From an uncultured Gemmataceae bacterium (lineage in GTDB: Bacteria; Planctomycetota; Planctomycetia; Gemmatales; Gemmataceae), in NCBI GenBank assembly GCA_963701675.1, contig OY969623.1, forward strand, positions 6,450,599-6,514,598: a stretch of DNA of 64,000 nucleotides. The letters run 5' to 3'. Below are positions 2,691 to 50,726 of the stretch, in pieces. Made by a program: the position numbers and the translations under genes. Positions within the stretch are counted from its first letter, which is position 1. Every line of letters starts with the position of its first letter. The notes under the pieces were generated by a model, which searched no databases, was not told the origin of the DNA, and worked only from the letters and a program-made list of their open reading frames with translations.

Positions 2691-5600
2691 ATGAACGATC
2701 CGATCAGTATCGACGACGCCGAACTCCTCTCGGAGGACATCGCCGAGGAATACCTGGAACACCTTCACGCCGGCAATGCGCCGGACCGCGCTCGCTGGCT
2801 CGATGCGCACCCTGACATAGCAGAAGTCCTCAACCGCCACTTGTCGGTTATCGAACGCATCCACCGCACGGCACAAGAGTCGAATGGCACCTCAACAGCG
2901 CTCGGCGCGGGTCTCCCGACCCCGCCGCCCGACCACATTGGCCGCTACGCAATTCTCGAAGTCCTCGGCCGTGGCGCATGCGGCACCGTGTATCATGCAT
3001 ACGATCCAAAATTCGATCGCGATGTCGCCCTTAAGGTCCTCCGCCCTGACCTGGCCGCCGATCCGCAATACGGTTCGCGCTTCCGCCGTGAAGCCCGCAT
3101 CGCCGCCCAACTGCGACACCCTCATATCGTCCCGGTTCACGCATCCGGCGAAGAAGATGGCCGAGTTTATCTGGACATGGCCTTCATCCCTGGCGAATCA
3201 CTCGAAGAGCGGCTAGCCGCCGGTCCTCTCTCGTTCGCCGACGCCGCCGACCTTGTCGAAAAACTCGCCGACGCCCTGCATTACGCCCATTCGCAAGGGA
3301 TCATCCATCGGGATGTGAAGCCAAGCAACATTCTGTTGGAGGGGTCAGGGGCCAGGGGCCAGGGGTCAGGAGTCAGAAGTCAGGATCAGGGATCAGAGTC
3401 TTCACTGACCCCTGACCCCTGGCCCCTGACCCCTGTTCTCACCGACTTCGGCCTCGCCCGCCGCGCCGCTGGGGAAGCGTCGTTGACCGAGCACGGCCAG
3501 GTCATCGGCACCCTGGCCTACATGCCGCCGGAACAAGCCCAGGGCGGCGGTCACCAGGCCGACGCCCGCAGCGATGTCTACAGCCTCGGCGCCGTGCTGT
3601 ATCGCTTGCTCAGCGGCCGTGTGCCGTTTCCGGATGACGGGTCATTCGTTTCACAGATTCACCGCATCGTGCACCACGAACCACCGACACCACGCACGGT
3701 GAACCGCGCAGTGCCGCGCGACCTGGAGACAATCTGTTTGAAAGCGATGGCCAAGGATCCGGCCGACCGCTTCACGACGGCGGCGGCGATGGCGGATGAG
3801 CTGCGGCGGTGGCGGAAGGATGAATCGCTGACAATACGGCCGCCGACGTGGTGGGAGAAAGGGCGGCGCTGGGCGCGGCGGAACAGGGCGGTAGCGAATG
3901 TTACGTTCGCTGCGGCAGTGCTGGTCGTGGCTGTCGGATTCCTGGCCCTGCTCGCCTGGCGCAACGCTGTGCTCGAAACCCGCACAAACGCCGAGGCCCA
4001 ATACATCAGGCTACTTTACCAGGCTAGACAACGCATTCTCACACCGATTGTCGGTCGCCGTGTGGAAGGACAACGCCTTCTAGAATCGGTGAAAGTACAC
4101 GGTGCGAGGATGCAAGATGCTGCAAGACGCCATCATCTCGACCTAGTGGCGCGATCGCTCTACGCAATGTCGTTAGGGGTACCGGACTTCGTTGCGAAGG
4201 AGGCCGACACTGTTAAGCTTCCAGAGGTGTTCTGGAAAATGTGGCCAATCGCGCTACATCCCGACGGGAAGGTGATGGTCATCGGCACATACAACGGGCC
4301 GGTGCGTTGGGATCGTGGTGGTTCGCCAAACTTGCCCCCCGATTTGGATCCGAATCTACATCGCCCGCGAATTGCGTTCAGTCCTGAAGGTAACTATCTC
4401 GCTTTCGCGCCGGAGGCAGGTGGCCTGATCCTCTACCCAGGCGACGTAGACACGACCCCAATCGCCAAATGGGCTTCGACAAAGAATGGTACGGTACAGA
4501 CCATCGGCTTTCATCCTGACGGACGTGCCGTGTCGCTGCTTTGCAGCGATGGGACGATCCAATGGCTTTCGGTACCGAATCTAAACGAGGCGTCTGTGTG
4601 GCCCAGCGATTCGACACTTGGGGAGGTGACGGTAGCCGCATTCTCACCCGACGCCTCGCAAATTGCGGTCGGGGACGCAAGCGGCAACGTACGGGTACGA
4701 TTCAGAGACGGCAAACCCATGAAGGTTCACTCTGCCAGCGATGACGCAACGCAGGTGGAGTCATTGGCTTGGTCGCCAGACGCCAAACTTCTTGCCGTCG
4801 GCAGGCGCGACGGCACTGTGGAACTCTGTGAAGCCGACAACGGAAGAATCCGCTGGCGAGGATCCATTTCCGCTACGGGTGTTAGCAATCTGGTCTTTGA
4901 TCCCTTGGGCCGTTGGCTTCTGGGCGGCTGGAGGCATTCCACGCTAAGAACGTGGGACGTGGCGAGCGGCCGCCAGGTCCTGACACTGGATTATTCCACT
5001 CCAATGGGATTCTCGCGTGACGGTAGGACGTTGGCTGTGGGCAATCAAATGAATGCGGCATTCGTGGAAATGGTCCCGCCCGCAACCGTGTGCCCTCTTT
5101 CCGGCCATCGGCGCGCTGTCGAGCATTTGGCTTGGAGCCGAAATGAGCGATTCCTGGTTTCGCTGGATTCCTCATACGAAATTCGTGTTTGGGACCTGGA
5201 GCGTGGCACTTCAATCATGGCCGTTCCGGCGCCACGTAGCGATTCTCAGTTTTTTCCAATGAACGCCCGGGTTGGAATCACTGATGACGGTGCTGTGGTT
5301 GCGTACGCAAGCGCCGGAACCAACGATTCTCACGCCTACATGTACGATGTGGCATCAGGGCACGTGCTCGGCAGCTGGCTGTTGCCAGGCGGTTTTGAAT
5401 CGATGGCGTTCAATGGAAAGGCGTTCGTGCTCGTGCGCGAGGAGTGTGCTTCAGCCGACGCGCCGCGGCAGAGCATCGTCTACGAATGGGCGATAGGACA
5501 TGAACCTCAAAAGCTGCATGCGTTGCGCGAAAGTGAAGCCGGCGACCAGCTAGGGTATTTCGCTAGTGAATTGACTCCGGACGCTCGCTATTTCCGATGG

Positions 5601-6092
5601 TGGGGCCCACGTAAACCGGACGAAAAACTGCGGCTGGAGGTGTACGATGTGGCTGCGAGACGCTGTATTAGGCGCTTTGGCCGGGCCGACTTGCGGGCTC
5701 CCGATGGTGGGCTTGGAGGCCATCTTTCCCCCGACGGTCGACGCTTACTTGTGGCACTTGGCGGAGGAGCCATGACGGCAATCGACCTGATTGATGGCAG
5801 CGAGTCTTATCCGGTGACAGGTTTGGAGTTCTCAGAAAACATGGAACGAACGGCACATTTCGCTGCGCCGAACGAATGGTGCAACTACGACCGTATCCGC
5901 GTATCGTCGCTCGACTCGTCAGGATCGCCTTTGGAACTGTTCAACCTCGATCTCTCAAACATCACCGGGCCGAATGTATGTTATCTCAGCCCCAGCGGCC
6001 GCTATCTTGCGTGGCGCGATGGGACCGGCGGCATCACCATCGCTGATCTACCAGCGCTGGAAACGGCAGTTGGCGGATTCCTAGCCGATTAA
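2691..6092 (+). CDS. Ser/Thr protein kinase (Hanks type) with transmembrane segment and C-terminal WD40/beta-propeller repeats; carries a 31-codon insertion between subdomains VIb and VII
   Basis: GRGACGTVY…ALKVL, HRDVKPSNILL, DFGLAR, YMPPE, DVYSLG; WD-like repeats (LAWSPD…, VWDL…, TWDV…) in the C-terminal half; it sits directly downstream of the ECF sigma gene. Confidence 0.85.
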   Translation: MNDPISIDDAELLSEDIAEEYLEHLHAGNAPDRARWLDAHPDIAEVLNRHLSVIERIHRTAQESNGTSTALGAGLPTPPPDHIGRYAILEVLGRGACGTVYHAYDPKFDRDVALKVLRPDLAADPQYGSRFRREARIAAQLRHPHIVPVHASGEEDGRVYLDMAFIPGESLEERLAAGPLSFADAADLVEKLADALHYAHSQGIIHRDVKPSNILLEGSGARGQGSGVRSQDQGSESSLTPDPWPLTPVLTDFGLARRAAGEASLTEHGQVIGTLAYMPPEQAQGGGHQADARSDVYSLGAVLYRLLSGRVPFPDDGSFVSQIHRIVHHEPPTPRTVNRAVPRDLETICLKAMAKDPADRFTTAAAMADELRRWRKDESLTIRPPTWWEKGRRWARRNRAVANVTFAAAVLVVAVGFLALLAWRNAVLETRTNAEAQYIRLLYQARQRILTPIVGRRVEGQRLLESVKVHGARMQDAARRHHLDLVARSLYAMSLGVPDFVAKEADTVKLPEVFWKMWPIALHPDGKVMVIGTYNGPVRWDRGGSPNLPPDLDPNLHRPRIAFSPEGNYLAFAPEAGGLILYPGDVDTTPIAKWASTKNGTVQTIGFHPDGRAVSLLCSDGTIQWLSVPNLNEASVWPSDSTLGEVTVAAFSPDASQIAVGDASGNVRVRFRDGKPMKVHSASDDATQVESLAWSPDAKLLAVGRRDGTVELCEADNGRIRWRGSISATGVSNLVFDPLGRWLLGGWRHSTLRTWDVASGRQVLTLDYSTPMGFSRDGRTLAVGNQMNAAFVEMVPPATVCPLSGHRRAVEHLAWSRNERFLVSLDSSYEIRVWDLERGTSIMAVPAPRSDSQFFPMNARVGITDDGAVVAYASAGTNDSHAYMYDVASGHVLGSWLLPGGFESMAFNGKAFVLVREECASADAPRQSIVYEWAIGHEPQKLHALRESEAGDQLGYFASELTPDARYFRWWGPRKPDEKLRLEVYDVAARRCIRRFGRADLRAPDGGLGGHLSPDGRRLLVALGGGAMTAIDLIDGSESYPVTGLEFSENMERTAHFAAPNEWCNYDRIRVSSLDSSGSPLELFNLDLSNITGPNVCYLSPSGRYLAWRDGTGGITIADLPALETAVGGFLAD
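3341..3435. repeat. heptamer-repeat palindrome (GGGGYCA)n…(TGRCCCC)n embedded in frame in the kinase CDS
   Basis: AGGGGTCAGGGGCCAGGGGCCAGGGGTCAGG…degenerate copies…CTGACCCCTGACCCCTGGCCCCTGACCCCTG; the arms are reverse complements. Confidence 0.8.
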
Positions 6093-8943: not shown

Positions 8944-10362
8944 GTGTTGCGGTGCTGGGAAGCCGTCCGTACGGTGGGGTACGAAAGTATGATGGGCCGG
9001 GTCTTTCTCGGGCGATATCAAACCGTCCGCCTGTTGGGCGAAGGCGGAATGGGGCGAGTGTACTTGGCACGGCAACTCGACCTGGGTCGGCAGGTCGTCG
9101 TCAAGGTCATGCACGAGCACATTGCCTCCGAGCCGAAGTTTCAGGAGCGTTTTCAACGCGAGACGCTCCTGATGGCCCGTTTTCAACATCCGTATGTCGT
9201 CACGCTGTTCGACGCGTCGCTCAACGATCCGCAAGGACCGTGCATCATCATGGAGTATATCCGCGGCGTCACGCTTGATGCACTCCGCAAAAGCAATCGT
9301 GAAAAGCTGGGCCCCGGTCGCGTCGCACGGCTGCTCGGACAACTGTGCGAAGCCTTGCAAGCCGCCCATGGGCAGGGCATTATCCATCGCGATCTGAAGC
9401 CGTCGAACCTGATGGTGGTCGATTCGGACTCGCCGTACGAAAAGATTAAAATCATGGACTTCGGCCTTGCCCGGCTGATTGGGGAGTCTGCGGTTCGACA
9501 CGGATCATCCACTTGCGGCGATTTCGCCGTAGGCACACCGGCGTACATTTGCCCGGAACAGGTGCGTGGCGAAGCGGTCGATCATCGATCCGATCTCTAC
9601 AGCGTCGGCGTGATCTTGTACGAGCTTCTGACCGGGCGCAAGCCGTTCGTCGGTGAATCGGCGATGGACATTTTGTTGGCGCATGCAACGGAAGAGCCGC
9701 CGCCTCTTACTGAGGTCGACGAGGATTTGGACCTGCCGCCAGGAGTTGAGAAACTCGTACTTGATTGTCTTGCCAAAGACCCGGCACACCGTCCGTCTAG
9801 TGCTCGTGAATTGGCGGAACGATTCGAGACGGCGTTGGCGCGAGAAGACTTGGATTCGGATGCCGTGATTCCCGAAGCTCTGCCGGTCGTGGAGCAGCCG
9901 GAAATCGATAACCCCTCGACGACCGACTCCGACGTATTGGTGTATCGCCTCGAAGCATGGATGCCGGAGTCCATCGCCCTCTACAAGCTCCGCGGCTACA
10001 TGAACGACGTAGGCGGGGACGTGGTCCAATCCGATCCGGGACGTGTGCGCGTATGCATCGGCGGGCCGGGCAGCGCTTATCAACTGCGTGGGCGTGGCTT
10101 ATCGTGGTTGGGATTGAGCCGAAACGCCGGCCGAATCGAAATGGACCTTCGCATGCAACACACCGATCTGGCACGCAGTAATCATCTGCTGATTACGGTG
10201 GTCATGCGCTCTCTCAACGGCAATTCCGCCTTCGACCCGCACTGGCGCACCGTGGCAACTCAAATCTACTGCGACCTGCGGGCGTATTTGATGGGAAAGT
10301 CGGGAGGGGGAGCGGGAGAAGAATTCAGAATTCAGAATTCAGAATTCAGAATCAAAAAATGA
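8944..10362 (+). CDS. Ser/Thr protein kinase with an uncharacterised C-terminal domain (start probably at the MMGRV Met near 8989)
   Basis: LGEGGMGRVYLA…VVVKVM, HRDLKPSNLMV, DFGLARL, GTPAYICPE, DLYSVG. Confidence 0.8.
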   Translation: MLRCWEAVRTVGYESMMGRVFLGRYQTVRLLGEGGMGRVYLARQLDLGRQVVVKVMHEHIASEPKFQERFQRETLLMARFQHPYVVTLFDASLNDPQGPCIIMEYIRGVTLDALRKSNREKLGPGRVARLLGQLCEALQAAHGQGIIHRDLKPSNLMVVDSDSPYEKIKIMDFGLARLIGESAVRHGSSTCGDFAVGTPAYICPEQVRGEAVDHRSDLYSVGVILYELLTGRKPFVGESAMDILLAHATEEPPPLTEVDEDLDLPPGVEKLVLDCLAKDPAHRPSSARELAERFETALAREDLDSDAVIPEALPVVEQPEIDNPSTTDSDVLVYRLEAWMPESIALYKLRGYMNDVGGDVVQSDPGRVRVCIGGPGSAYQLRGRGLSWLGLSRNAGRIEMDLRMQHTDLARSNHLLITVVMRSLNGNSAFDPHWRTVATQIYCDLRAYLMGKSGGGAGEEFRIQNSEFRIKK

Positions 10363-10437
10363 GCAGACTTGTTTCCGATAATGCTTAGGGCAGCCGCACG
10401 ATAGCATTACTCTGAATTCTGAATTCTGAATTCTCAC
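10320..10437. repeat. heptamer-repeat palindrome (GAATTCA)4…(CTGAATT)3 with a nested inner inverted repeat; a candidate bidirectional terminator between convergent genes
   Basis: gaattcagaattcagaattcagaattcagaat…ataatgct…agcattactctgaattctgaattctgaattct; the left arm encodes the C-terminal EEFRIQNSEFRIKK of the kinase. Confidence 0.8.
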
Positions 10438-39029: not shown

Positions 39030-40027
39030 TCGTGTCGGATTGCTAGATCCGACGGCTTGACGCCTTTCTTGAATCCGCCGAATTTGAACGGAGACGGCCG
39101 AAACTCACCGACGATATCCACCTTGGCTCGCGCCGGTATCTGGCTTTCCATCGCCAGAGCCCAGTAGCAAGCGTTGACCAGCAACCGTCTCAATCCTTCA
39201 CTTTCCAAGTCTTGTGACGCGCCAATGGTGGACGTGAACACGCGCGCTTTCTTCCCCGATGCGGTTTGAAAAGTCTTCGTCCAGGCGATAGGCATCATGG
39301 GATCGTTTTGCTTGCCGGCCGCGGGTTTATCCGTCGCTTGCATTCCCTCCACAACCTGCCCCAGGACCAGCGGTTGGCTAACCCCCGGCAGCGGCAGCCG
39401 GACACCGTAAACGTCGGTCGGTCCCCAGATGTCGCCGTCCTCGATGCCGCGAAGGATTGGGTGGGACTCCTGGCCTTTCACCCGCAAGCCACGGGTGCTT
39501 TGTTTGCCGTGTTGTCCGTGATGGCTGATCCATTTCTCGCCGAGCACCTGCCGACCGAAACCACCTTCCCATTCGTTGCTGTTGTCGGAGTAGCGTGCAT
39601 ATTTCTTGTCGGGCTTGATGTTGAACGCATGGGTGGATGTTCGAATGCCAATGATCGGCTTGCCCGACTCCACGTAGTCGACGATGTGTTTCATTTGCTC
39701 GTCCGGCAGATCGCGGTAACGAGTGAAGATAATCATGAGGTCGGCAGACTTGAGTACGTCCAGCCCGGGAATGTTGTCGTTGATGTTCGGATTGATTGTG
39801 CCGTCCTTCGGGTCGATCGCGAACAAGACGGTGCACTTGAAGCCGTGATGTTTGGCGAGAATCTTCGCCAACTGCGGAAGCGCCTCTTCCGATCGGTATT
39901 CCTCGTCGCCGCTGATGAGGACGATGTGTTTACCCTTTCCAGGTCCCTCGCTACCGTCAACGACAAGCCACGGGTCGGCGGCGAGGAAAGACAAAAGGAT
40001 GAAGGATGAAGGATGAAGGATGAACAT
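39026..40027 (-). CDS. ThuA-like (class I glutamine amidotransferase-like) secreted protein; the signal peptide is encoded by a (GGATGAA)4 tandem heptamer
   Basis: 'HIVLISGDEEYRSEEALPQLAKIL…MIIFTR' is the ThuA core; ATG at 40027 with a GGAG RBS 8 nt upstream. Confidence 0.6.
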   Translation of the reverse strand: MFILHPSSFILLSFLAADPWLVVDGSEGPGKGKHIVLISGDEEYRSEEALPQLAKILAKHHGFKCTVLFAIDPKDGTINPNINDNIPGLDVLKSADLMIIFTRYRDLPDEQMKHIVDYVESGKPIIGIRTSTHAFNIKPDKKYARYSDNSNEWEGGFGRQVLGEKWISHHGQHGKQSTRGLRVKGQESHPILRGIEDGDIWGPTDVYGVRLPLPGVSQPLVLGQVVEGMQATDKPAAGKQNDPMMPIAWTKTFQTASGKKARVFTSTIGASQDLESEGLRRLLVNACYWALAMESQIPARAKVDIVGEFRPSPFKFGGFKKGVKPSDLAIRHD

Positions 40028-43988: not shown

Positions 43989-44804
43989 GTGGCCATGTGG
44001 GAGACAACGACGATTCTGTACTGGGCGATTGCGGCGGGTATTCTCATTTTGGGATTGTCGGGAATTCGAGTCGCGCAAGAATACCGGCGCGCGGTGGTGT
44101 TCCGTTTGGGCCGGTATCACTCCATTCGCGGACCGGGCTTGTACTACAACATTCCGATTATCGAATGGCAGAAGTCCGTCGATATGCGAACCGTTACGGT
44201 TGACGTGGAGCCTCAGGAAACGATCACCAAGGACTCGGTGACGATCAAGGTGAACGCGGTGTTGTGGTACCGAGTCACCGTGCCGTTCAAGGCGATTCTC
44301 GAAGTCGCGGACTTCCGGGCGGCCGTGTATCAAGTCGCCCTGACGAGCCTGCGAAACATCATCGGCCAACATGTGCTGGACGAAGTTCTGAAGGAACGGG
44401 ACAAGATCAACCTTATGCTTCGGGAGATTGTGGACCGCGATACCGACCCGTGGGGTGTCAAAGTAGAGATGATCGAGATGAAGGACGTGGAAATTCCACA
44501 GGCCATGCAACGGGCGATGGCCCGCGAGGCTGAGGCGATCCGGGAAAAGCGTGCCCGCATCATCAAGTCCGAAGCGGAACTGGAAGCCTCAGCCAAGCTG
44601 GCACAGGCTTCGGAGGTAATCACGAGGCATCCGCTGAGCTTGGAACTTCGCCGAATGCAGATGATCTCCGAAGTCGGCGCGGAGCAAAACACGACGACCA
44701 TCATCATGATGCCGTCGGAGTTCGTGTCGATGGCGAAAGGCATCGGAGATTTGCTTAAGCAAACCAGCAACGGCGTCGCCCGGGAACCCATCGCCAAAGG
44801 CTAA
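43989..44804 (+). CDS. SPFH/band-7 (stomatin/HflC-like) membrane protein
   Basis: N-terminal TM helix plus 'IRVAQEYRRAVVFRLGRY…' in the SPFH domain. Confidence 0.8.
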   Translation: MAMWETTTILYWAIAAGILILGLSGIRVAQEYRRAVVFRLGRYHSIRGPGLYYNIPIIEWQKSVDMRTVTVDVEPQETITKDSVTIKVNAVLWYRVTVPFKAILEVADFRAAVYQVALTSLRNIIGQHVLDEVLKERDKINLMLREIVDRDTDPWGVKVEMIEMKDVEIPQAMQRAMAREAEAIREKRARIIKSEAELEASAKLAQASEVITRHPLSLELRRMQMISEVGAEQNTTTIIMMPSEFVSMAKGIGDLLKQTSNGVAREPIAKG

Positions 44805-44936
44805 CTGATCGACTCCGACACGCGGGTGCCCTCAATGGCACCCGCGTTGTCGCGCGCACCATGTCACCCACTCTTCCGGATGGTTAGAATCTAAACAGGC
44901 CGGCGGATCGACTAACTTGGTGGAGTCGAGTGCCAT

Positions 44937-46151
44937 ATGTCCAGTTATTATCAATACCGATCTCCTGAACCACGGCGTCCGCGAAGCGCCACGTGGCCGG
45001 CGGTGCTACTCATCATTCTGATTGCCGTTTTGGGCGTGTTGGCACTGGATCAAGGTTTTGGTTGGCGGCTGTTTCGGCGAGCGCCGGACCTCAAGGGTTC
45101 GTTCGAACCTCGGCTAGTGGTGGCGCGGGGCGATTTTTCGTCGGATGAACAGGCCACCATCGCCGTCTACGAGCGGAATGCGCCGTCGGTTGTTCACATC
45201 AACAACCTGGCCGAGCACGAGAATTTTCTCACCTGGGATGTACAGCAAATTCCGCGGGGCTCCGGCTCCGGATTCGTCTGGGATGATAACGGGATTATCG
45301 TCACCAACGCGCACGTCGTTCAAGGGGCCGATACCGTCGAAGTCATCCTGCCGGACAAAGCGCAGACCCGCTATGTGACGCGTGACTGGGTCGCCTACCC
45401 GGACAAAGATATTGCAGTCATTTATGTCGATGCTCCCAAAGACAAGCTCCGCAAGATCCCCGCCATCGGGACATCGAGTGACTTGAAGGTTGGGCAGAAG
45501 ACGTATGCCATCGGTAATCCCTTTGGCTTGGACCAAACGCTGACGACCGGAATCGTCAGTGCGCTGAATCGTGAGATCAAGGCGGACAGTGGGCGAAGTA
45601 TCGAGAAAGTTATTCAAACCAGCGCACCAATCAATCCGGGAAACAGCGGCGGACCGCTCCTCGACGCTGAAGGCCGGGTCATCGGTGTGAATACCGCGAT
45701 ACTTAGCCCATCGGGCACCTTCGCCGGCATCGGCTTCGCCATTCCGATCGATGAGGTCAATCAGGTTGTACCGACGCTAATAGCGCGGCTCAACGAGAAC
45801 ATTCAAAACAAGTCGGGGCCTATGACCGTGCGCCCGCCCCGGCTTGGCGTCACACTGGCCCCGGAGCAATACGCTCGCAGTCAAGGTATTGACGGAGGCG
45901 CCCTCATCCTCCGGGTGGAACCACGAAGCCCGGCAGCCGAGGCAGGTCTACGTCCGACTCGACGTGATAGCAGCCGCGGCACCGTTCTTCTCGGCGACGT
46001 GATTCTTAGCATCGACGACAAGCCGGTGAAATCTCCGAGCGACATTTCCGCCATCCTTGAGGGCCGTCAATACGGCGAAAAGATCGTCGTGCAAGTGCTG
46101 CGTGGCCGACGGCAGATGGGTGTTGAAGTAACACTCACACCGTTGCGGTAG
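44937..46151 (+). CDS. HtrA/DegP-family serine protease with PDZ, membrane-anchored
   Basis: TNAHVV, GNSGGPLLD, and a C-terminal PDZ 'LGDVILSIDDKPV'. Confidence 0.8.
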   Translation: MSSYYQYRSPEPRRPRSATWPAVLLIILIAVLGVLALDQGFGWRLFRRAPDLKGSFEPRLVVARGDFSSDEQATIAVYERNAPSVVHINNLAEHENFLTWDVQQIPRGSGSGFVWDDNGIIVTNAHVVQGADTVEVILPDKAQTRYVTRDWVAYPDKDIAVIYVDAPKDKLRKIPAIGTSSDLKVGQKTYAIGNPFGLDQTLTTGIVSALNREIKADSGRSIEKVIQTSAPINPGNSGGPLLDAEGRVIGVNTAILSPSGTFAGIGFAIPIDEVNQVVPTLIARLNENIQNKSGPMTVRPPRLGVTLAPEQYARSQGIDGGALILRVEPRSPAAEAGLRPTRRDSSRGTVLLGDVILSIDDKPVKSPSDISAILEGRQYGEKIVVQVLRGRRQMGVEVTLTPLR

Positions 46152-46242
46152 TAACCGGTCCGACTTGACAGGTTAGTTCCTTCCGTGCTAAAAGCCGGTG
46201 CCGATCACCAGATAAGTAACCCGGCCCACGGATGGGCGAGCA

Positions 46243-47637
46243 ATGATCCGACGCACCAGCCAGCTCTTGAGCGCGTGGTTCCTGGTTTGGGACCTGGCGG
46301 TGACGGCCGTCGCCTGGGTTGGTTCCTATTATTTGCGCTTCGATTCCGGTTGGTTCCCCGTTCTCAAAGACACCCCGGACGTTGCTTTATGCTTGCGTAA
46401 TCTTCCCGTCACGTTACTCTGTGCCGCGCTCGCTTACCGCTGGACCGGGCAATACAAACTAAACCGGTTCCGCCGATTTCGTGAAGAACTTCTCGGCGCC
46501 ATTCAGGGCACGGGTTTGATGGTCTTGCTCGTCATGGCGACGACGTTTCTGCGGCAGGATCCTTACGAATCACGGGTCACGATGGCCATCTTTACCATCG
46601 CATCGGCGGTCGGCATTCTAACGGTGCGACGGCTAAGTTGGATGGCACTGCGCGAGCTACGAAGCCGTGGCTACAACCAGACGCGCTCGATCATTGTCGG
46701 CACGGGCCGGGTCGCGCGCCAGACGGCCCGGGCCCTACACCGCCTTAGCTGGCTCGGCATACGAAACATCGGCTACATCGAAGATCACCCAAGCCGATGG
46801 ACCGACGATCTGAATACGCTCGGCACCAGCGCCGATTTACCTGTGTTGATTCAGAAGTACCAGGTTGGACATGTTTTCATCGCGTTGCCCATGAGCCGTT
46901 ACCACGACGCTCGTCGTGTTTTCAACATTCTTTCGCAGAGCATGGTTGAGGTGCGGCTGGTCACCGACGTGCCGACTCTTTCCGGACTTTCGTTGACCAC
47001 GACGAGCTTGGACGGTTTGCCGGTGATCGGGTTGCGCGAGAGTCCGCACTTCGGACTGAACATGCTCGTCAAACGCGTCGTTGACGTGACGGTGTCATTT
47101 CTCCTTCTCATTGTGCTGGTGCCGCTCATGGCACTGCTGGCCATCCTCATTAAGCTCACCAGCCCGGGGCCGATTTTCTACGGGCAGGAGCGATGTGGAC
47201 TGAACGGCGAGGCATTCAACATGCTGAAGTTCCGCAGCATGCGCGTCGACGCGGAAGAGCAAAGCGGGGCCGTGTGGGCACAGAAGGACGACCCGCGCCG
47301 CACCCGTTTGGGCGCGTTTCTGCGCGCCACCAGCTTAGACGAGCTGCCGCAACTCATCAACGTACTCAAAGGCGACATGAGCCTGGTGGGGCCCCGTCCG
47401 GAACGTCCCGTTTTCATTCAGCGTTTTCGGAACACCATCCCGAACTACATGGCCCGCCACTCCGTCAAGGCCGGCATCACCGGATGGGCCCAGGTCCACG
47501 GTTGGCGCGGCAACACATCGCTTCGCAAACGGGTGCAGTACGATCTCTACTACATCACCCATTGGAACCCCTGGCTCGACATCCGCATCCTGTGGATGAC
47601 GCTTTTTCACGGGCTGTTCCATCGAAATGCCTACTAG
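46243..47637 (+). CDS. undecaprenyl-phosphate sugar phosphotransferase (WbaP/WcaJ-type bacterial sugar transferase)
   Basis: N-terminal TM helices and a C-terminal 'KRVVDV…LKFRSM…DELPQLINVLKGDMSLVGPRPE' domain. Confidence 0.8.
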   Translation: MIRRTSQLLSAWFLVWDLAVTAVAWVGSYYLRFDSGWFPVLKDTPDVALCLRNLPVTLLCAALAYRWTGQYKLNRFRRFREELLGAIQGTGLMVLLVMATTFLRQDPYESRVTMAIFTIASAVGILTVRRLSWMALRELRSRGYNQTRSIIVGTGRVARQTARALHRLSWLGIRNIGYIEDHPSRWTDDLNTLGTSADLPVLIQKYQVGHVFIALPMSRYHDARRVFNILSQSMVEVRLVTDVPTLSGLSLTTTSLDGLPVIGLRESPHFGLNMLVKRVVDVTVSFLLLIVLVPLMALLAILIKLTSPGPIFYGQERCGLNGEAFNMLKFRSMRVDAEEQSGAVWAQKDDPRRTRLGAFLRATSLDELPQLINVLKGDMSLVGPRPERPVFIQRFRNTIPNYMARHSVKAGITGWAQVHGWRGNTSLRKRVQYDLYYITHWNPWLDIRILWMTLFHGLFHRNAY

Positions 47638-47767
47638 CAGTTGTCAGTTGTCAGAATTCGTAGTCTCGTAACTGCAATCCATAGCGGCTAGGCACCTGCA
47701 TCCAATATCATTGGAGAAGTGTCCCAGCAACTGACAACTGACAACTGGCAACTGACAACTGCTTGAA
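47637..47767. repeat. heptamer-repeat palindrome (CAGTTGT)n…(CAACTGR)5 filling the sugar-transferase/obg intergenic space
   Basis: gcagttgtcagttgtcag … cagcaactgacaactgacaactggcaactgacaactgc; the right arm ends 5 nt before the obg ATG. Confidence 0.8.
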
Positions 47768-48787
47768 ATGTTTGTCGACCGTGTAACCCTGTATGTCAAA
47801 GGCGGCGATGGCGGCGCGGGCTGCTGTAGCTTTCGGCGCGAGAAGTATGTACCGAAAGGCGGTCCCGACGGCGGCGACGGCGGCGACGGCGGCAGCGTCG
47901 TCATTCGGGCGGTGGCCGGCACGGATAGTCTTGCCGACGTAGTTAATCGCAAGCATTGGCGTGCACCGAAGGGTGGCAGCGGGCGATCGGACAACTGCCA
48001 TGGTCGAAAGGGCCGAGATCTATTCATTCCTGTGCCCCCAGGCACTTTGGTTCTGGATCGGGATCGGGGCCATGTGCTTCGCGACCTCGTCCATCCGGAT
48101 GACGAAGTAACGATTGCCCACGGCGGCCGCGGCGGGCGCGGAAATCGCGCATTTGCAACAGCGACAAATCGTGCGCCACGTGAAACCCAGCCCGGAACTT
48201 CGGGTGAGGAACGCTGGATCGTTCTCGAACTCAAGGTCATTGCCGACGCCGGGCTGATCGGGTTGCCGAACGCCGGCAAGTCGACGCTCTTGAGCCGCCT
48301 CTCGCACGCCCGACCGGAAGTCGCGGATTACCCGTTCACCACCAAACACCCGAATCTTGGCTTGGTCACGATCGGCGAAGAGCGGGCGTTTGTGCTCGCC
48401 GATCTACCCGGACTCATCGAAGGTGCTCACGAAGGCATCGGCCTGGGCCACGAGTTCCTCCGTCACGTCGAACGCACTCGTGTTCTGGTGCATCTTGTTG
48501 AGCCGTTGCCGCTGGACGGCAGCGATCCGGTGAAAAACTACCATGCGATACGACAAGAGTTGACACTTCATCGTCACGGACTTGAGCAAAAGCCGGAGAT
48601 CGTCGCCGTGAGCAAAGCCGAATTGACGGGCAGCGCGGAGGTGCGCGAGCGGCTGGAGAAAGACCTCGGGCGTGACGTGCTGGCGGTGTCCTCGGCAACG
48701 GGCCGCGGACTGGCGGAGCTGGTCGGCGCGGTCAGTCGACAGTTACGAGCATCCCAAAACCACATGCTTGATGAGACCCGCGCATGA
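47768..48787 (+). CDS. obg: GTPase Obg/CgtA
   Basis: MFVDRVTLYVKGGDGGAGCCSFRREK…, a GGDGGDGG glycine-rich loop, and the G1-G4 motifs. Confidence 0.9.
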   Translation: MFVDRVTLYVKGGDGGAGCCSFRREKYVPKGGPDGGDGGDGGSVVIRAVAGTDSLADVVNRKHWRAPKGGSGRSDNCHGRKGRDLFIPVPPGTLVLDRDRGHVLRDLVHPDDEVTIAHGGRGGRGNRAFATATNRAPRETQPGTSGEERWIVLELKVIADAGLIGLPNAGKSTLLSRLSHARPEVADYPFTTKHPNLGLVTIGEERAFVLADLPGLIEGAHEGIGLGHEFLRHVERTRVLVHLVEPLPLDGSDPVKNYHAIRQELTLHRHGLEQKPEIVAVSKAELTGSAEVRERLEKDLGRDVLAVSSATGRGLAELVGAVSRQLRASQNHMLDETRA

Positions 48788-49530
48788 AACCGCACCTCGT
48801 GGTCGATGTCGGCAATAGCCGAATCAAATGGGGCCGGTGTGCGGACACTCACGTCACAGAAGGCGTTTCGCTCCCGCCGGACGAATCCGAAGTTTGGGGA
48901 CGACAACTGGAAACGTGGAAAATGGAAGGCCCGCTCAGGTGGGCCGTCTGCGGCGTCCACCCGGAGCGTCGGGATCGATTCATCGAATGGATACGGAAGC
49001 GCGGCGACGCCGTCCTCCAGCTTAACGCCGCGAACCAGCTTCCACTCGAGGTCGACCTGGAGTTTCCGGACCGCGTCGGCATTGATCGGCTCATGGACGC
49101 CGTCGCGGCCAAGCAACGTGCTGTTGGCAAGCCCGCCATCATCGTGGACGCCGGTTCTGCCGTAACCATCGATTGGCTTACGGAGACAGGTATTTATTCC
49201 GGCGGTTCGATTTTTCCGGGTATCCGCCTCATGGTCGAATCGCTCCATAACTTCACCGCTCTGCTGCCGCACATCGACGTCAAAGAACCCAGTCCGAAAC
49301 TCCCGGCCACTTCGACTCCGGCGGCGATGGAAGCCGGCGTGTTCTGGGCGGTGATCGGCGGAATCAACGAGATATCCGCCCGGCTGGAAGCAAGCGTCAT
49401 GAGCAAACCGGCGCGTTTCATTACCGGGGGCGACGCCGAGTTCCTCCATCCCGCGCTACCCAATGACTTCATGCTTTGGCCCACGATGACACTGGAAGGA
49501 ATTCGCATTGCCGCCGAGGGCCACCCGTGA
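48784..49530 (+). CDS. coaX: type III pantothenate kinase
   Basis: MKPHLVVDVGNSRIKWG… in an ASKHA fold; it overlaps the obg stop (ATGA). Confidence 0.8.
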   Translation: MKPHLVVDVGNSRIKWGRCADTHVTEGVSLPPDESEVWGRQLETWKMEGPLRWAVCGVHPERRDRFIEWIRKRGDAVLQLNAANQLPLEVDLEFPDRVGIDRLMDAVAAKQRAVGKPAIIVDAGSAVTIDWLTETGIYSGGSIFPGIRLMVESLHNFTALLPHIDVKEPSPKLPATSTPAAMEAGVFWAVIGGINEISARLEASVMSKPARFITGGDAEFLHPALPNDFMLWPTMTLEGIRIAAEGHP

Positions 49531-50621
49531 CGGCGGCGCACACGTATGCGGCTCAACTGACACCTGCCGGGACCGGCGCGATCGCGACCGTCGCCGTGTG
49601 CGGTCCGCGCGCCTGGGAAGTGGCTGCTCGGCTTTTTCGGCCAAAATCTAAGTCGAGCTCCTGGCCGCCGGCAACGCCAACTGCCGATCACATTTGGCTT
49701 GGTCGTTTCGGCGAAACTACTCAAGGCGTCCTCATGGACGAAGTCGTGCTCTCCGTGCCACGCCTGAAGCCGACCCCGCGCGTGGAGATTCACTGTCACG
49801 GCGGCGCGGAGGTTGTGCGCTGGCTGTTGGAGCTACTGGATGCACAGGGCGTGCAGCGTTGTTCCTGGCAGGAACTGGAACGCCGTTTCACCGATGATCC
49901 GCTGGAAGTGTCGGCAAGGACGGCCTTGGCCGAAGCGTTGACCCTCCGAACGGCGGGCATCTTGCTCGATCAGTGCCACGGCGCCCTCCGCCGAGCGTTT
50001 GCCGCGATTGAAGCGGCAGAAGCGGCCGGCAATGCCGAGGGAGGCAGCCGATTGCGTGAAGAACTTCGCCGCTACGCGCCCGTCGGTTTGCATCTCACGA
50101 CGCCGTGGCGGGTGGCCGTGATGGGCGCGCCGAACGTCGGCAAGAGTAGCCTGGTAAACGCCCTGGCGGGATACCAGCGCACTATCGTGTCAGCCACACC
50201 TGGCACAACGCGCGATGTAGTCACGACGCTCATCGCCGTCGACGGTTGGCCGATCGAACTTTCCGACACCGCGGGCTTCAGGGAAAGCAGCGAGGTGCTT
50301 GAAGCCGAGGGGATCAAGCTTGCTCGGACGGCCGGGCAGTCGGCTGAGTTGTGTTTATGGATACTTGATGCAGCGACAGCGCCCGTCTTTCCGCCAACGG
50401 ACCTGAAGAATGTGCGCCTCGTGTTGAACAAGATTGACTTGCCGGCCGTTTGGGACGTTGAACAGGCATCGGCGCTCCGAGTGTCGGCACAGACCGGCGA
50501 AGGCATGGCGGATCTGGTTTCCAAACTTGCAGAGTGGCTGGTTCCGGAGCCGCCCCCCCCGGGTGCCGCTGTGCCATTCACGGCGGAAATTGCCAAAATG
50601 GTTGGAGCGACGACGCAATGA
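49527..50621 (+). CDS. mnmE: tRNA modification GTPase MnmE-like (short form)
   Basis: N-terminal 'GTGAIATVAVCGP', 'VEIHCHGG', and a G domain 'VAVMGAPNVGKSSLVNAL…TPGTTRD…DTAG'. Confidence 0.6.
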   Translation: MTAAHTYAAQLTPAGTGAIATVAVCGPRAWEVAARLFRPKSKSSSWPPATPTADHIWLGRFGETTQGVLMDEVVLSVPRLKPTPRVEIHCHGGAEVVRWLLELLDAQGVQRCSWQELERRFTDDPLEVSARTALAEALTLRTAGILLDQCHGALRRAFAAIEAAEAAGNAEGGSRLREELRRYAPVGLHLTTPWRVAVMGAPNVGKSSLVNALAGYQRTIVSATPGTTRDVVTTLIAVDGWPIELSDTAGFRESSEVLEAEGIKLARTAGQSAELCLWILDAATAPVFPPTDLKNVRLVLNKIDLPAVWDVEQASALRVSAQTGEGMADLVSKLAEWLVPEPPPPGAAVPFTAEIAKMVGATTQ

Positions 50622-50726
50622 AAATCAGCGTGGTGGGGTTTGCTGACAGCCAGGTTTTCCGTGTCAGGTGGCACAAGACATTTCTGTCTGTGGCCGCACA
50701 GACAGAAATGTCTGTACCACCGGGCT

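Follow-up and report, generated by a model that had tools for sequence, protein, structure and literature searches.

In the 64,000-nucleotide stretch of DNA analysed here (the window; uncultured Gemmataceae bacterium, Planctomycetota, assembly GCA_963701675.1, contig OY969623.1, positions 6,450,599 to 6,514,598), an inverted pair of tandem heptamer arrays lies between a sugar-transferase gene and obg, which encodes an essential GTPase. We lean, if modestly, towards reading this element (47638–47761) as one copy of a dispersed class of palindromic heptamer arrays that is maintained at the DNA level, and not as a purpose-built regulator of obg. The members of the class comprise two tandem arrays of 7-nt units, inverted with respect to each other around a unique spacer, and by analogy they may be regarded as the planctomycete counterpart of the short tandemly repeated repetitive (STRR) sequences of cyanobacteria and of the inverted array pairs of Xanthomonas. 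At orthologous sites, the periodicity and the arm complementarity outlast long divergence while both arms switch their unit together.

Structure of the Element Upstream of obg

The initial annotation described a heptamer hairpin between the two genes, and the analysis bore this out: the hairpin is real and fills the entire 130-nt gap between sugar transferase and obg. The upstream neighbour is a 464-aa open reading frame (ORF, 46243–47637) coding for a sugar transferase with the Pfam domains Bac_transf and CoA_binding_3, and its C-terminus, NAY followed by the stop, is shared with four related loci (L087, L005, L092 and L094). The parts of the element and its flanks are as follows:

47635–47637, + strand: TAG stop codon of the 464-aa sugar transferase, the AG of which pairs with CT at 47762–47763 at the foot of the stem
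47638–47654, + strand: left (5′) array, (CAGTTGT)x2.4, equivalent to (TCAGTTG)n; 100% match in Tandem Repeats Finder; G/T-rich TCA-type strand
47655–47727, + strand: spacer (loop) of 73 nt, unique, with small internal hairpins and a −10-like TATCAT at 47706–47711
47728–47761, + strand: right (3′) array, (CAACTGR)x4.9; consensus CAACTGA with 92% match in Tandem Repeats Finder; C/A-rich TGA-type strand
47762–47767, + strand: gap of 6 nt, cttgaa, between the right array and the obg start, with no Shine–Dalgarno (SD)-like motif
47768–48787, + strand: obg (Pfam GTP1_OBG and MMR_HSR1), 339 aa, start confirmed, overlapping coaX by ATGA at 48784–48787

The units of the right array read, in order, CAACTGA, CAACTGA, CAACTGG, CAACTGA and CAACTG, so that the array is about 2.5 units longer than the left one, and it carries a stop codon in all three frames. 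The longest complementary arms returned by the repeat finder (47636–47654 and 47745–47763) are 19 nt long, 95% complementary and 90 nt apart, with a sole mismatch that becomes a G·U pair in RNA; two alternative pairing registers were also found, which makes three in all. Since the stem arm starts at 47636, the pairing takes in the AG of the sugar-transferase stop codon. The five CAACTGR units do lie close to the obg ATG (47768), as was initially annotated, but the distance is 6 nt for the array or 4 nt for the paired arm and not 5 nt. A search of the window for the doublet pattern CAACTGRCAACTGR (≤1 mismatch) gave five matches, all within the obg element, where 0.04 are expected from shuffles; CAACTGR doublets are thus confined to this element. 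The head-to-tail arrays are longer than by chance, as in heptanucleotide simple sequence repeats (SSRs).

The predicted RNA fold of the element reaches −51.6 kcal/mol (z = −4.4), with none of 200 shuffles as stable, and the DNA fold reaches −27 kcal/mol (z = −4.0). The scan for intrinsic terminators (G+C-rich stem plus U tract) found none at the element, where the tail after the stem is CUUGAAAUG, and Rfam 15 gave no match at E ≤ 1 in 47400–48000. No target-site duplication was visible at the flanks, and the spacer has no similarity to the loops of the other elements.

Further Heptamer Elements in the Window

The 64 kb hold at least three inverted heptamer pairs and one solo array, each of the four loci with its own unit; that the obg element has such companions was missed in the initial annotation. 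The strongest inverted repeats of the window are all heptamer-array pairs and fall in the first two elements listed here:

3340–3435, + strand: (AGGGGTC)x8.3, 8 nt, (CTGACCC)x4.4, in frame in the Ser/Thr kinase–WD40 ORF 2691–6092
10320–10434, + strand: (AGAATTC)x4.7, 58-nt spacer, (TCTGAAT)x3.4, between convergent genes
39995–40024, − strand: solo array (AAGGATG)x4.3, which on the minus strand, as (CATCCTT)n, forms the signal-peptide core of a ThuA-like protein

The element at 3340–3435 (RNA fold z = −7.0) sits between HRDVKPSNILL and LTDFGLA, at the β7–β8 turn of the kinase catalytic domain. With (GGGGNCA)n as its left array, which matches the canonical G-quadruplex motif, it is the sole G-quadruplex-like element of the window. 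The lone unit that would hold an in-frame TGA reads TGG, and the paired left-arm unit mirrors the change as CCA, which argues that the kinase insert is translated and that selection keeps it open, with the pairing kept too. At 10320–10434 (RNA fold z = −7.2), the kinase ORF 8944–10362 reads 14 codons into the left array, which gives the protein the 14-residue tail EEFRIQNSEFRIKK, and a minus-strand DUF11 gene ends 2 nt from the right array. The spacer of this element has a 7-bp hairpin of its own and a GATAAT hexamer. The solo array encodes FILHPSSFILL, the hydrophobic core of the signal peptide. The initial idea of a device dedicated to obg therefore loses ground, since a like architecture occurs inside a kinase ORF and between convergent genes of the same window, and no sense-strand (RNA) pairing bias was detected in the class.

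Turnover of the Arms at Orthologous Sites

At the same β7–β8 turn, variable inserts are seen in all three of the nearest kinase orthologues (66, 59 and 56% identity), while more distant homologues have the normal short turn and no insert. DNA was compared for the window and two of these three orthologues (L161 and L162). The unit pair is GGGGTCA/TGACCCC in the window, GGCAGTA/TACTGCC in L161 and ATTGCAG/CTGCAAT in L162, and the arrays of the latter two, (GGCAGTA)n with (CTACTGC)n and (ATTGCAG)n with (CTGCAAT)n, respectively, both fold as hairpins.

At the 5′ edge of obg, the closest Obg homologues (80–81% identity) come from Gemmataceae metagenome-assembled genomes (MAGs) and soil metagenome contigs. 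The initial annotation regarded a repeat-free obg upstream region in relatives as evidence against its reading. Such regions were found in most relatives, the closest included, although several relatives keep inverted arrays. In L087 (75% Obg identity), the synteny of sugar transferase and obg is retained, and the TAG is followed at once by the units TCAGTAG, TCATTCG, TCATTGG and TCATTAG, a spacer, the units CTAATGA, CGAATGA, CTAATGA and CCAATGG, 8 nt and the obg ATG, the unit pair being TCATTNG/CNAATGA. L002, which is sister to the window in a rough neighbour-joining Obg tree with no support values, has a CTTGTCA-type array and an array of TGACAAG, TGACGAG and TGACAAC units that ends 8 nt 5′ of the obg ATG. 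These units nearly match the TGACAAC of the window, even though the upstream gene of L002 is a divergently transcribed kinase, which suggests that the element stayed with obg through a rearrangement. Octamer arrays were observed in L010 (9784–9997), where (GGTGAGGT)x6 faces about 20 units of CCCCACAA/CCTCACCA/CCTCACTA, with strongly asymmetric arms that reach 3 nt 5′ of the obg ATG. In L105, the order is rpmA, (CTTTAGG)n, loop, (CCTAAAG)n, 3 nt and an obg GTG start. The arrays of all four loci fold as long hairpins. In L005, L092, L094 and L096, where the synteny is conserved, the stop codon is followed by hairpins of the ordinary kind, and a −10-like box lies closer to obg. On the other side of the gene, a long solo array, (GGGCGTA)x17.4, lies just 3′ of obg in a Pirellulaceae MAG (L021, 11044–11165).

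Regularities of the Class and Upkeep of the Arms

A total of 40 independent period-7 elements were counted in about 2 Mb, comprising the window and the related loci. A TGA/TCA core is present in 20 of them (null 0.195, p = 1.5e-5) and TGAC/GTCA in 10 (null 0.046, p = 1e-5), with GTCA being the commonest 4-mer. With three or more TGA-type units, every frame is closed by a stop; no such stops arise on the opposite strand, in keeping with how the coding copies are oriented. Of 27 elements, about 14 end ≤20 nt from a start codon, and many begin ≤12 nt from a stop; the edge-to-edge filling of the intergenic space is therefore typical of the class and not special to obg. Neither a second copy of any element nor any loop similarity was found in the 2 Mb, which excludes a sequence-conserved family of MITEs (miniature inverted-repeat transposable elements) or repetitive extragenic palindromic (REP) sequences.

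Two units nevertheless recur. AAGGATG forms solo arrays at unrelated sites in the window (39995–40024) and in L088 (6981–7021), and TGACCAA is shared by L013 13885–13967, recO of Nostoc and the arm of the L087 element nearest obg. In L088, the array is located between obg and coaX; the stop codon of obg comes from it, as does an SD-like AAGGA just 5′ of the coaX ATG. Primase (DnaG) sites of the CTG type were considered for the shared core and dropped, as the units of L002 and L087 lack CTG.

Were the stem under selection as RNA, a preference of G·U pairs for the transcribed strand would be expected. For eight elements whose sense strand is defined, the energy differences (sense minus antisense) were +3.6, 0, −3.1, −10.4, +9.4, −1.8, −5.0 and +6.4 kcal/mol; no bias emerged, and RNA-level selection on the stem was rejected. 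In quasipalindrome correction, intrastrand template switching copies changes from one arm to the other. We suggest that replication slippage would make the arrays grow and shrink, that intrastrand template switching would keep both arms complementary, and that the spread of an element may be halted only by selected sequence, which in this case means the stop of the sugar-transferase gene and the start of obg.

The inverted heptamer architecture is not confined to Planctomycetota. Inverted pairs with locus-specific units were found in the Firmicute Anaerobacillus (L070, 14800–14905 and 18581–18788), and another inverted pair of heptamer arrays in a deltaproteobacterial Syntrophobacterales MAG (L056, 354–422).

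Start Codon and Expression Signals of obg

Another obg start further downstream, with a good ribosome-binding site, was held in the initial annotation to be a finding that would speak against it. The ATG at 47768 was confirmed as the start, since position 1 of the GTP1_OBG Pfam profile aligns to residue 3 of Obg, the Obg of all relatives starts with MFVD or MAFVD, and an in-frame TGA at 47753 lies 5′ of the ATG; alternative starts were ruled out on these grounds. The lack of an SD-like motif 5′ of obg was correctly noted, but it poses no difficulty of its own: of 50 crude gene starts in the window, only about 19 come with an SD-like motif, even on lenient criteria, and SD absence is normal in this genome (about 60% of genes).

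It was also argued that the hairpin leaves no room for a promoter. This does not follow, as the −10-like TATCAT of the spacer (47706–47711) faces obg 56 nt 5′ of the ATG. A −10-like hexamer facing obg is present in all three long loops (window TATCAT, L002 TACAAT, L087 TATGAT), with a joint chance of 0.008 computed post hoc. The two-hexamer promoter scan was negative in the window, L002 and L087, and was negative too in relatives with an obvious TACAAT box, so the scan is uninformative. Reading CTGACA/TTGTCA within the arrays as −35-like was dropped, there being no matching −10 at the right distance. In L002, where the upstream gene is divergent, obg must have its own promoter in the region. 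A −10 box ending 6–7 nt 5′ of the obg ATG occurs in 6 of 30 Gemmataceae relatives (p = 2e-8; TACAAT, TATCAT, TAAAAT or TATGAT in L007, L081, L084, L090, L092 and L095), none with an E. coli-like −35 beside it. From the position of these boxes, the obg mRNA appears to be leaderless in a fifth of the Gemmataceae relatives; the obg of the window lacks such an ATG-proximal box.

Two kinds of transcript may be envisaged. Transcription of obg most likely starts from the spacer TATCAT, and this would yield an mRNA with the right array alone, that is, with a C/A-rich, stop-studded leader of about 50 nt, and in RNA with only the right array the obg start region is predicted to be accessible (P(unpaired) 0.65–0.77 at −10 to −1). 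In RNA that reads through from the sugar-transferase gene, the full hairpin would form, serve as a 3′ stem-loop and mask −6 to −25 of obg. The geometry for translational coupling of the unmasking type is present, with the upstream ORF ending at the foot of the start-masking stem, and a ribosome terminating at the TAG might unzip that foot and allow coupled initiation at obg. When such a ribosome was modelled, P(unpaired) at −15 to −6 rose from 0.01 to 0.38–0.46, because the leftover left arm slides to inner units. Judging from these models, obg is probably expressed from the spacer −10-like box, by termination-coupled unmasking on read-through RNA, or by both. We favour a mixed model, in which an internal promoter would give the right-array leader and the full hairpin on read-through RNA would admit initiation by coupling only.

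The genes from 43989 to 50621 are co-directional, obg and coaX overlap at 48784–48787, and coaX is overlapped at its end, at 49476–49530, by an mnmE-like ORF for which the mechanical ORF list gives a TTG start. Judged by this arrangement, the upstream co-directional genes together with obg, coaX and the mnmE-like gene look like one long operon. Past the end of the mnmE-like gene and ahead of a convergent gene lies a perfect 17-bp palindrome, AGACATTTCTGTCTGTG/CACAGACAGAAATGTCT, with a 4-nt loop (50676–50713); it is not heptameric and is probably a bidirectional terminator or a 3′ stem-loop. A repeat within obg, (CGACGGCGG)x3.1 at 47866–47893, has nothing to do with the heptamer elements; it is an ordinary coding repeat that specifies the glycine-rich GGPDGGDGGDGG motif of the Obg fold.

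Weighing of Alternative Explanations

Several observations weigh against a class of DNA-maintained arrays with no dedicated role at obg. Compared with other genes of the same loci, obg starts show an approximately 5-fold enrichment of heptamer arrays (odds ratio 5.4; p = 0.016, rising to 0.08 in a sensitivity run). This would favour an obg-linked function and is suggestive, in a test that is weakened by inspection bias and phylogenetic non-independence. The enrichment of the TGA(C) core and the recurrence of AAGGATG and TGACCAA are unexplained by pure slippage and could mean a protein partner or selection. Template switching is deduced from symmetry, the −10-like loop hexamers are a post hoc finding and have no recognisable −35, and the census of the class is small, drawn from 64 kb for this genome and about 2 Mb for relatives.

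The alternative that survives best, which we consider possible though doubtful, treats the element as a neutral passenger in a polycistronic mRNA, with obg promoterless and translated only by coupling to termination at the TAG in the stem foot. The co-directional genes and the obg/coaX overlap agree with it, as do the stop codon in the stem foot with the obg start 4 nt past the stem, the like geometry of L087 and the opening of the start region in the ribosome model. However, coupling is impossible in the sister element of L002 with its divergent upstream gene, obg in relatives usually has its own −10 box nearby, and a −10-like hexamer occurs in all three long loops.

Cleavage by RNase III is unlikely in our view. 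Perfect stems of 19–24 bp would be cut, the cistrons separated and the obg start freed, by analogy with the hmw1A hairpin of Haemophilus influenzae. The lower limit of stem length for RNase III is about two helical turns, and the stem of the obg element, though a long and nearly perfect double-stranded RNA, lies at this limit. A tested precedent exists in a heptamer-SSR hairpin that is cleaved by RNase III with raised expression (PMC12721329), but the copies inside ORFs would be left unexplained.

A dedicated cis-acting RNA hairpin that attenuates obg translation, an RNA thermometer included, was the proposal of the initial annotation, and we now find it improbable. Part of it stands: in read-through RNA, the stem does pair −6 to −25 of obg (P(unpaired) ≤0.02). 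The AUG itself is 72–84% unpaired. The other option raised in the initial annotation, a processed transcript, may still hold. The thermometer was rejected in silico, as P(unpaired) at −20 to −11 is 0.00–0.02 at every temperature from 20 to 55 °C, with the AUG at 0.72–0.84 throughout. Analogous hairpins adjoin obg in L002, L087, L010 and L105, and the modest enrichment at obg starts would agree with attenuation. Against this stand the like architecture within ORFs and between convergent genes, the unbiased strand energies, the lack of the element in most relatives, the closest among them, and the absence of an Rfam match.

Phase variation at a contingency locus has still less to recommend it. 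Gain or loss of a 7-nt unit would shift the register or the spacing and switch the Obg level; where the arrays are coding, the outcome would be a frameshift in the kinase and in the ThuA-like gene. Perfect arrays of 4–5 units are prone to slippage, the unit length is no multiple of 3, the arms differ in copy number (2.4 vs 4.9), and precedents have been described (PMC4679880, PMC12721329). Selection against switching is suggested, however, by the coding copies, whose units are degenerate and whose frame is intact in every orthologue.

More speculative again is a selected coupling device, tunable by copy number, in which re-initiation across the stem foot would be a bacterial analogue of ribosome shunting. 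Such a device would be preferentially kept at the 5′ edge of obg, a dedicated factor would recognise its conserved TGA(C) core, and unit gain or loss would set the Obg level stochastically; we give this little credence. Insertion of a MITE or REP-like element between sugar transferase and obg is the least probable explanation, since the terminal inverted repeats around a unique core and the insertion-like presence and absence among relatives are set against the lack of a second copy or loop similarity in 2 Mb, terminal units that differ at every locus, the missing target-site duplication and orthologous sites that keep the architecture with changed sequence.

Comparison with Known Heptamer Repeats

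The STRR names of the cyanobacterial heptamers reportedly go back to Mazel and colleagues in 1990. As in these repeats, several units occur per genome in the present class, with arrays at or over start codons. The heptamers of Nostoc include GGGGA[C/T]T and TTTTGAA (PMC4692102); several have been described near start codons, among them (GAC[C/T]AAT)x8 at the recO start (10.1101/2022.06.06.494920). The Nostoc GACCAAT/TGACCAA unit is identical to the units at L013 13885–13967 and in the obg-proximal arm of L087. Nostoc belongs to another phylum, however, with few inverted pairs reported (PMC4692102), and turnover at orthologous sites was not described there.

According to Mrazek 2007, as cited in PMC4679880, heptanucleotide repeats are the commonest long SSRs in many bacteria. 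Xanthomonas genomes hold 70–75 inverted pairs of GGGAATC arrays each, preferentially near gene ends, with a type conserved between species (Rehm et al. 2015, PMC4692102). These repeats lie mostly between aligned ORFs, ≤50 bp from gene ends, and the single or inverted type is conserved while the length varies (PMC4692102). The obg element resembles them in having tandem 7-nt units in two nearby convergent arrays, on opposite strands, that are able to form a stem-loop. It differs in its unit, CAACTGA/TCAGTTG, from the one genome-wide, G-rich and G-quadruplex-forming GGGNATC, and the present class has locus-specific units, the TGA(C) core and in-frame copies in ORFs.

In Beggiatoaceae, TAACTGA arrays lie a few nucleotides upstream of the start codons of genes without an SD (MacGregor 2015, PMC4679880). 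CAACTGA is one base from TAACTGA, and the two share the forward orientation near start codons (here 6 nt from the obg ATG), the three-frame stops and the SD-less genes, essential ones among them. Beggiatoaceae have a single genome-wide network of TAACTGA direct repeats, with 1 inverted case in 170, whereas the units here are locus-specific and have an inverted partner array.

In the H. influenzae hmw1A 5′ untranslated region, a hairpin with (ATCTTTC)n is cleaved by RNase III and tunes expression (PMC12721329). There too, a long hairpin lies just 5′ of a gene and has a heptamer SSR as one of its arms, and in both cases repeat number could be coupled to expression. In hmw1A, however, the opposite arm is G-rich and not made of repeats, and experiments there have demonstrated transcription, cleavage and phase variation. 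REP sequences, REPINs and MITEs are likewise short, intergenic, hairpin-forming and dispersed, but they have a conserved sequence, many copies and a cognate transposase, and no sequence is conserved between the copies of the present class. The elements thus belong to the broad heptamer-repeat kind, yet their units differ from the defining unit of each named family. They stand apart in that their units are specific to the locus yet have the TGA(C) core in common, that orthologous sites show turnover, and that copies persist in frame within coding regions.

No description of such heptamer elements in Planctomycetota was found in the searchable literature, and the present elements extend the hairpin-forming heptamer SSRs from cyanobacteria, Xanthomonas and Beggiatoaceae to this phylum. 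They bear on repeat evolution in two ways: both arms change their unit jointly at orthologous sites with periodicity and complementarity retained, and elements survive in frame within a loop of a kinase catalytic domain, where an in-frame TGA became TGG. For annotation, they advise caution, as such hairpins need not each be a gene-specific riboregulator. The obg element is ordinary as a regulator of obg and informative on the evolution and the tolerated sites of palindromic heptamer arrays. Should the modest enrichment at obg starts or the TGA(C) core reflect function, these elements would be a tractable system in which to study initiation without an SD and the tuning of an essential GTPase's expression by repeats.

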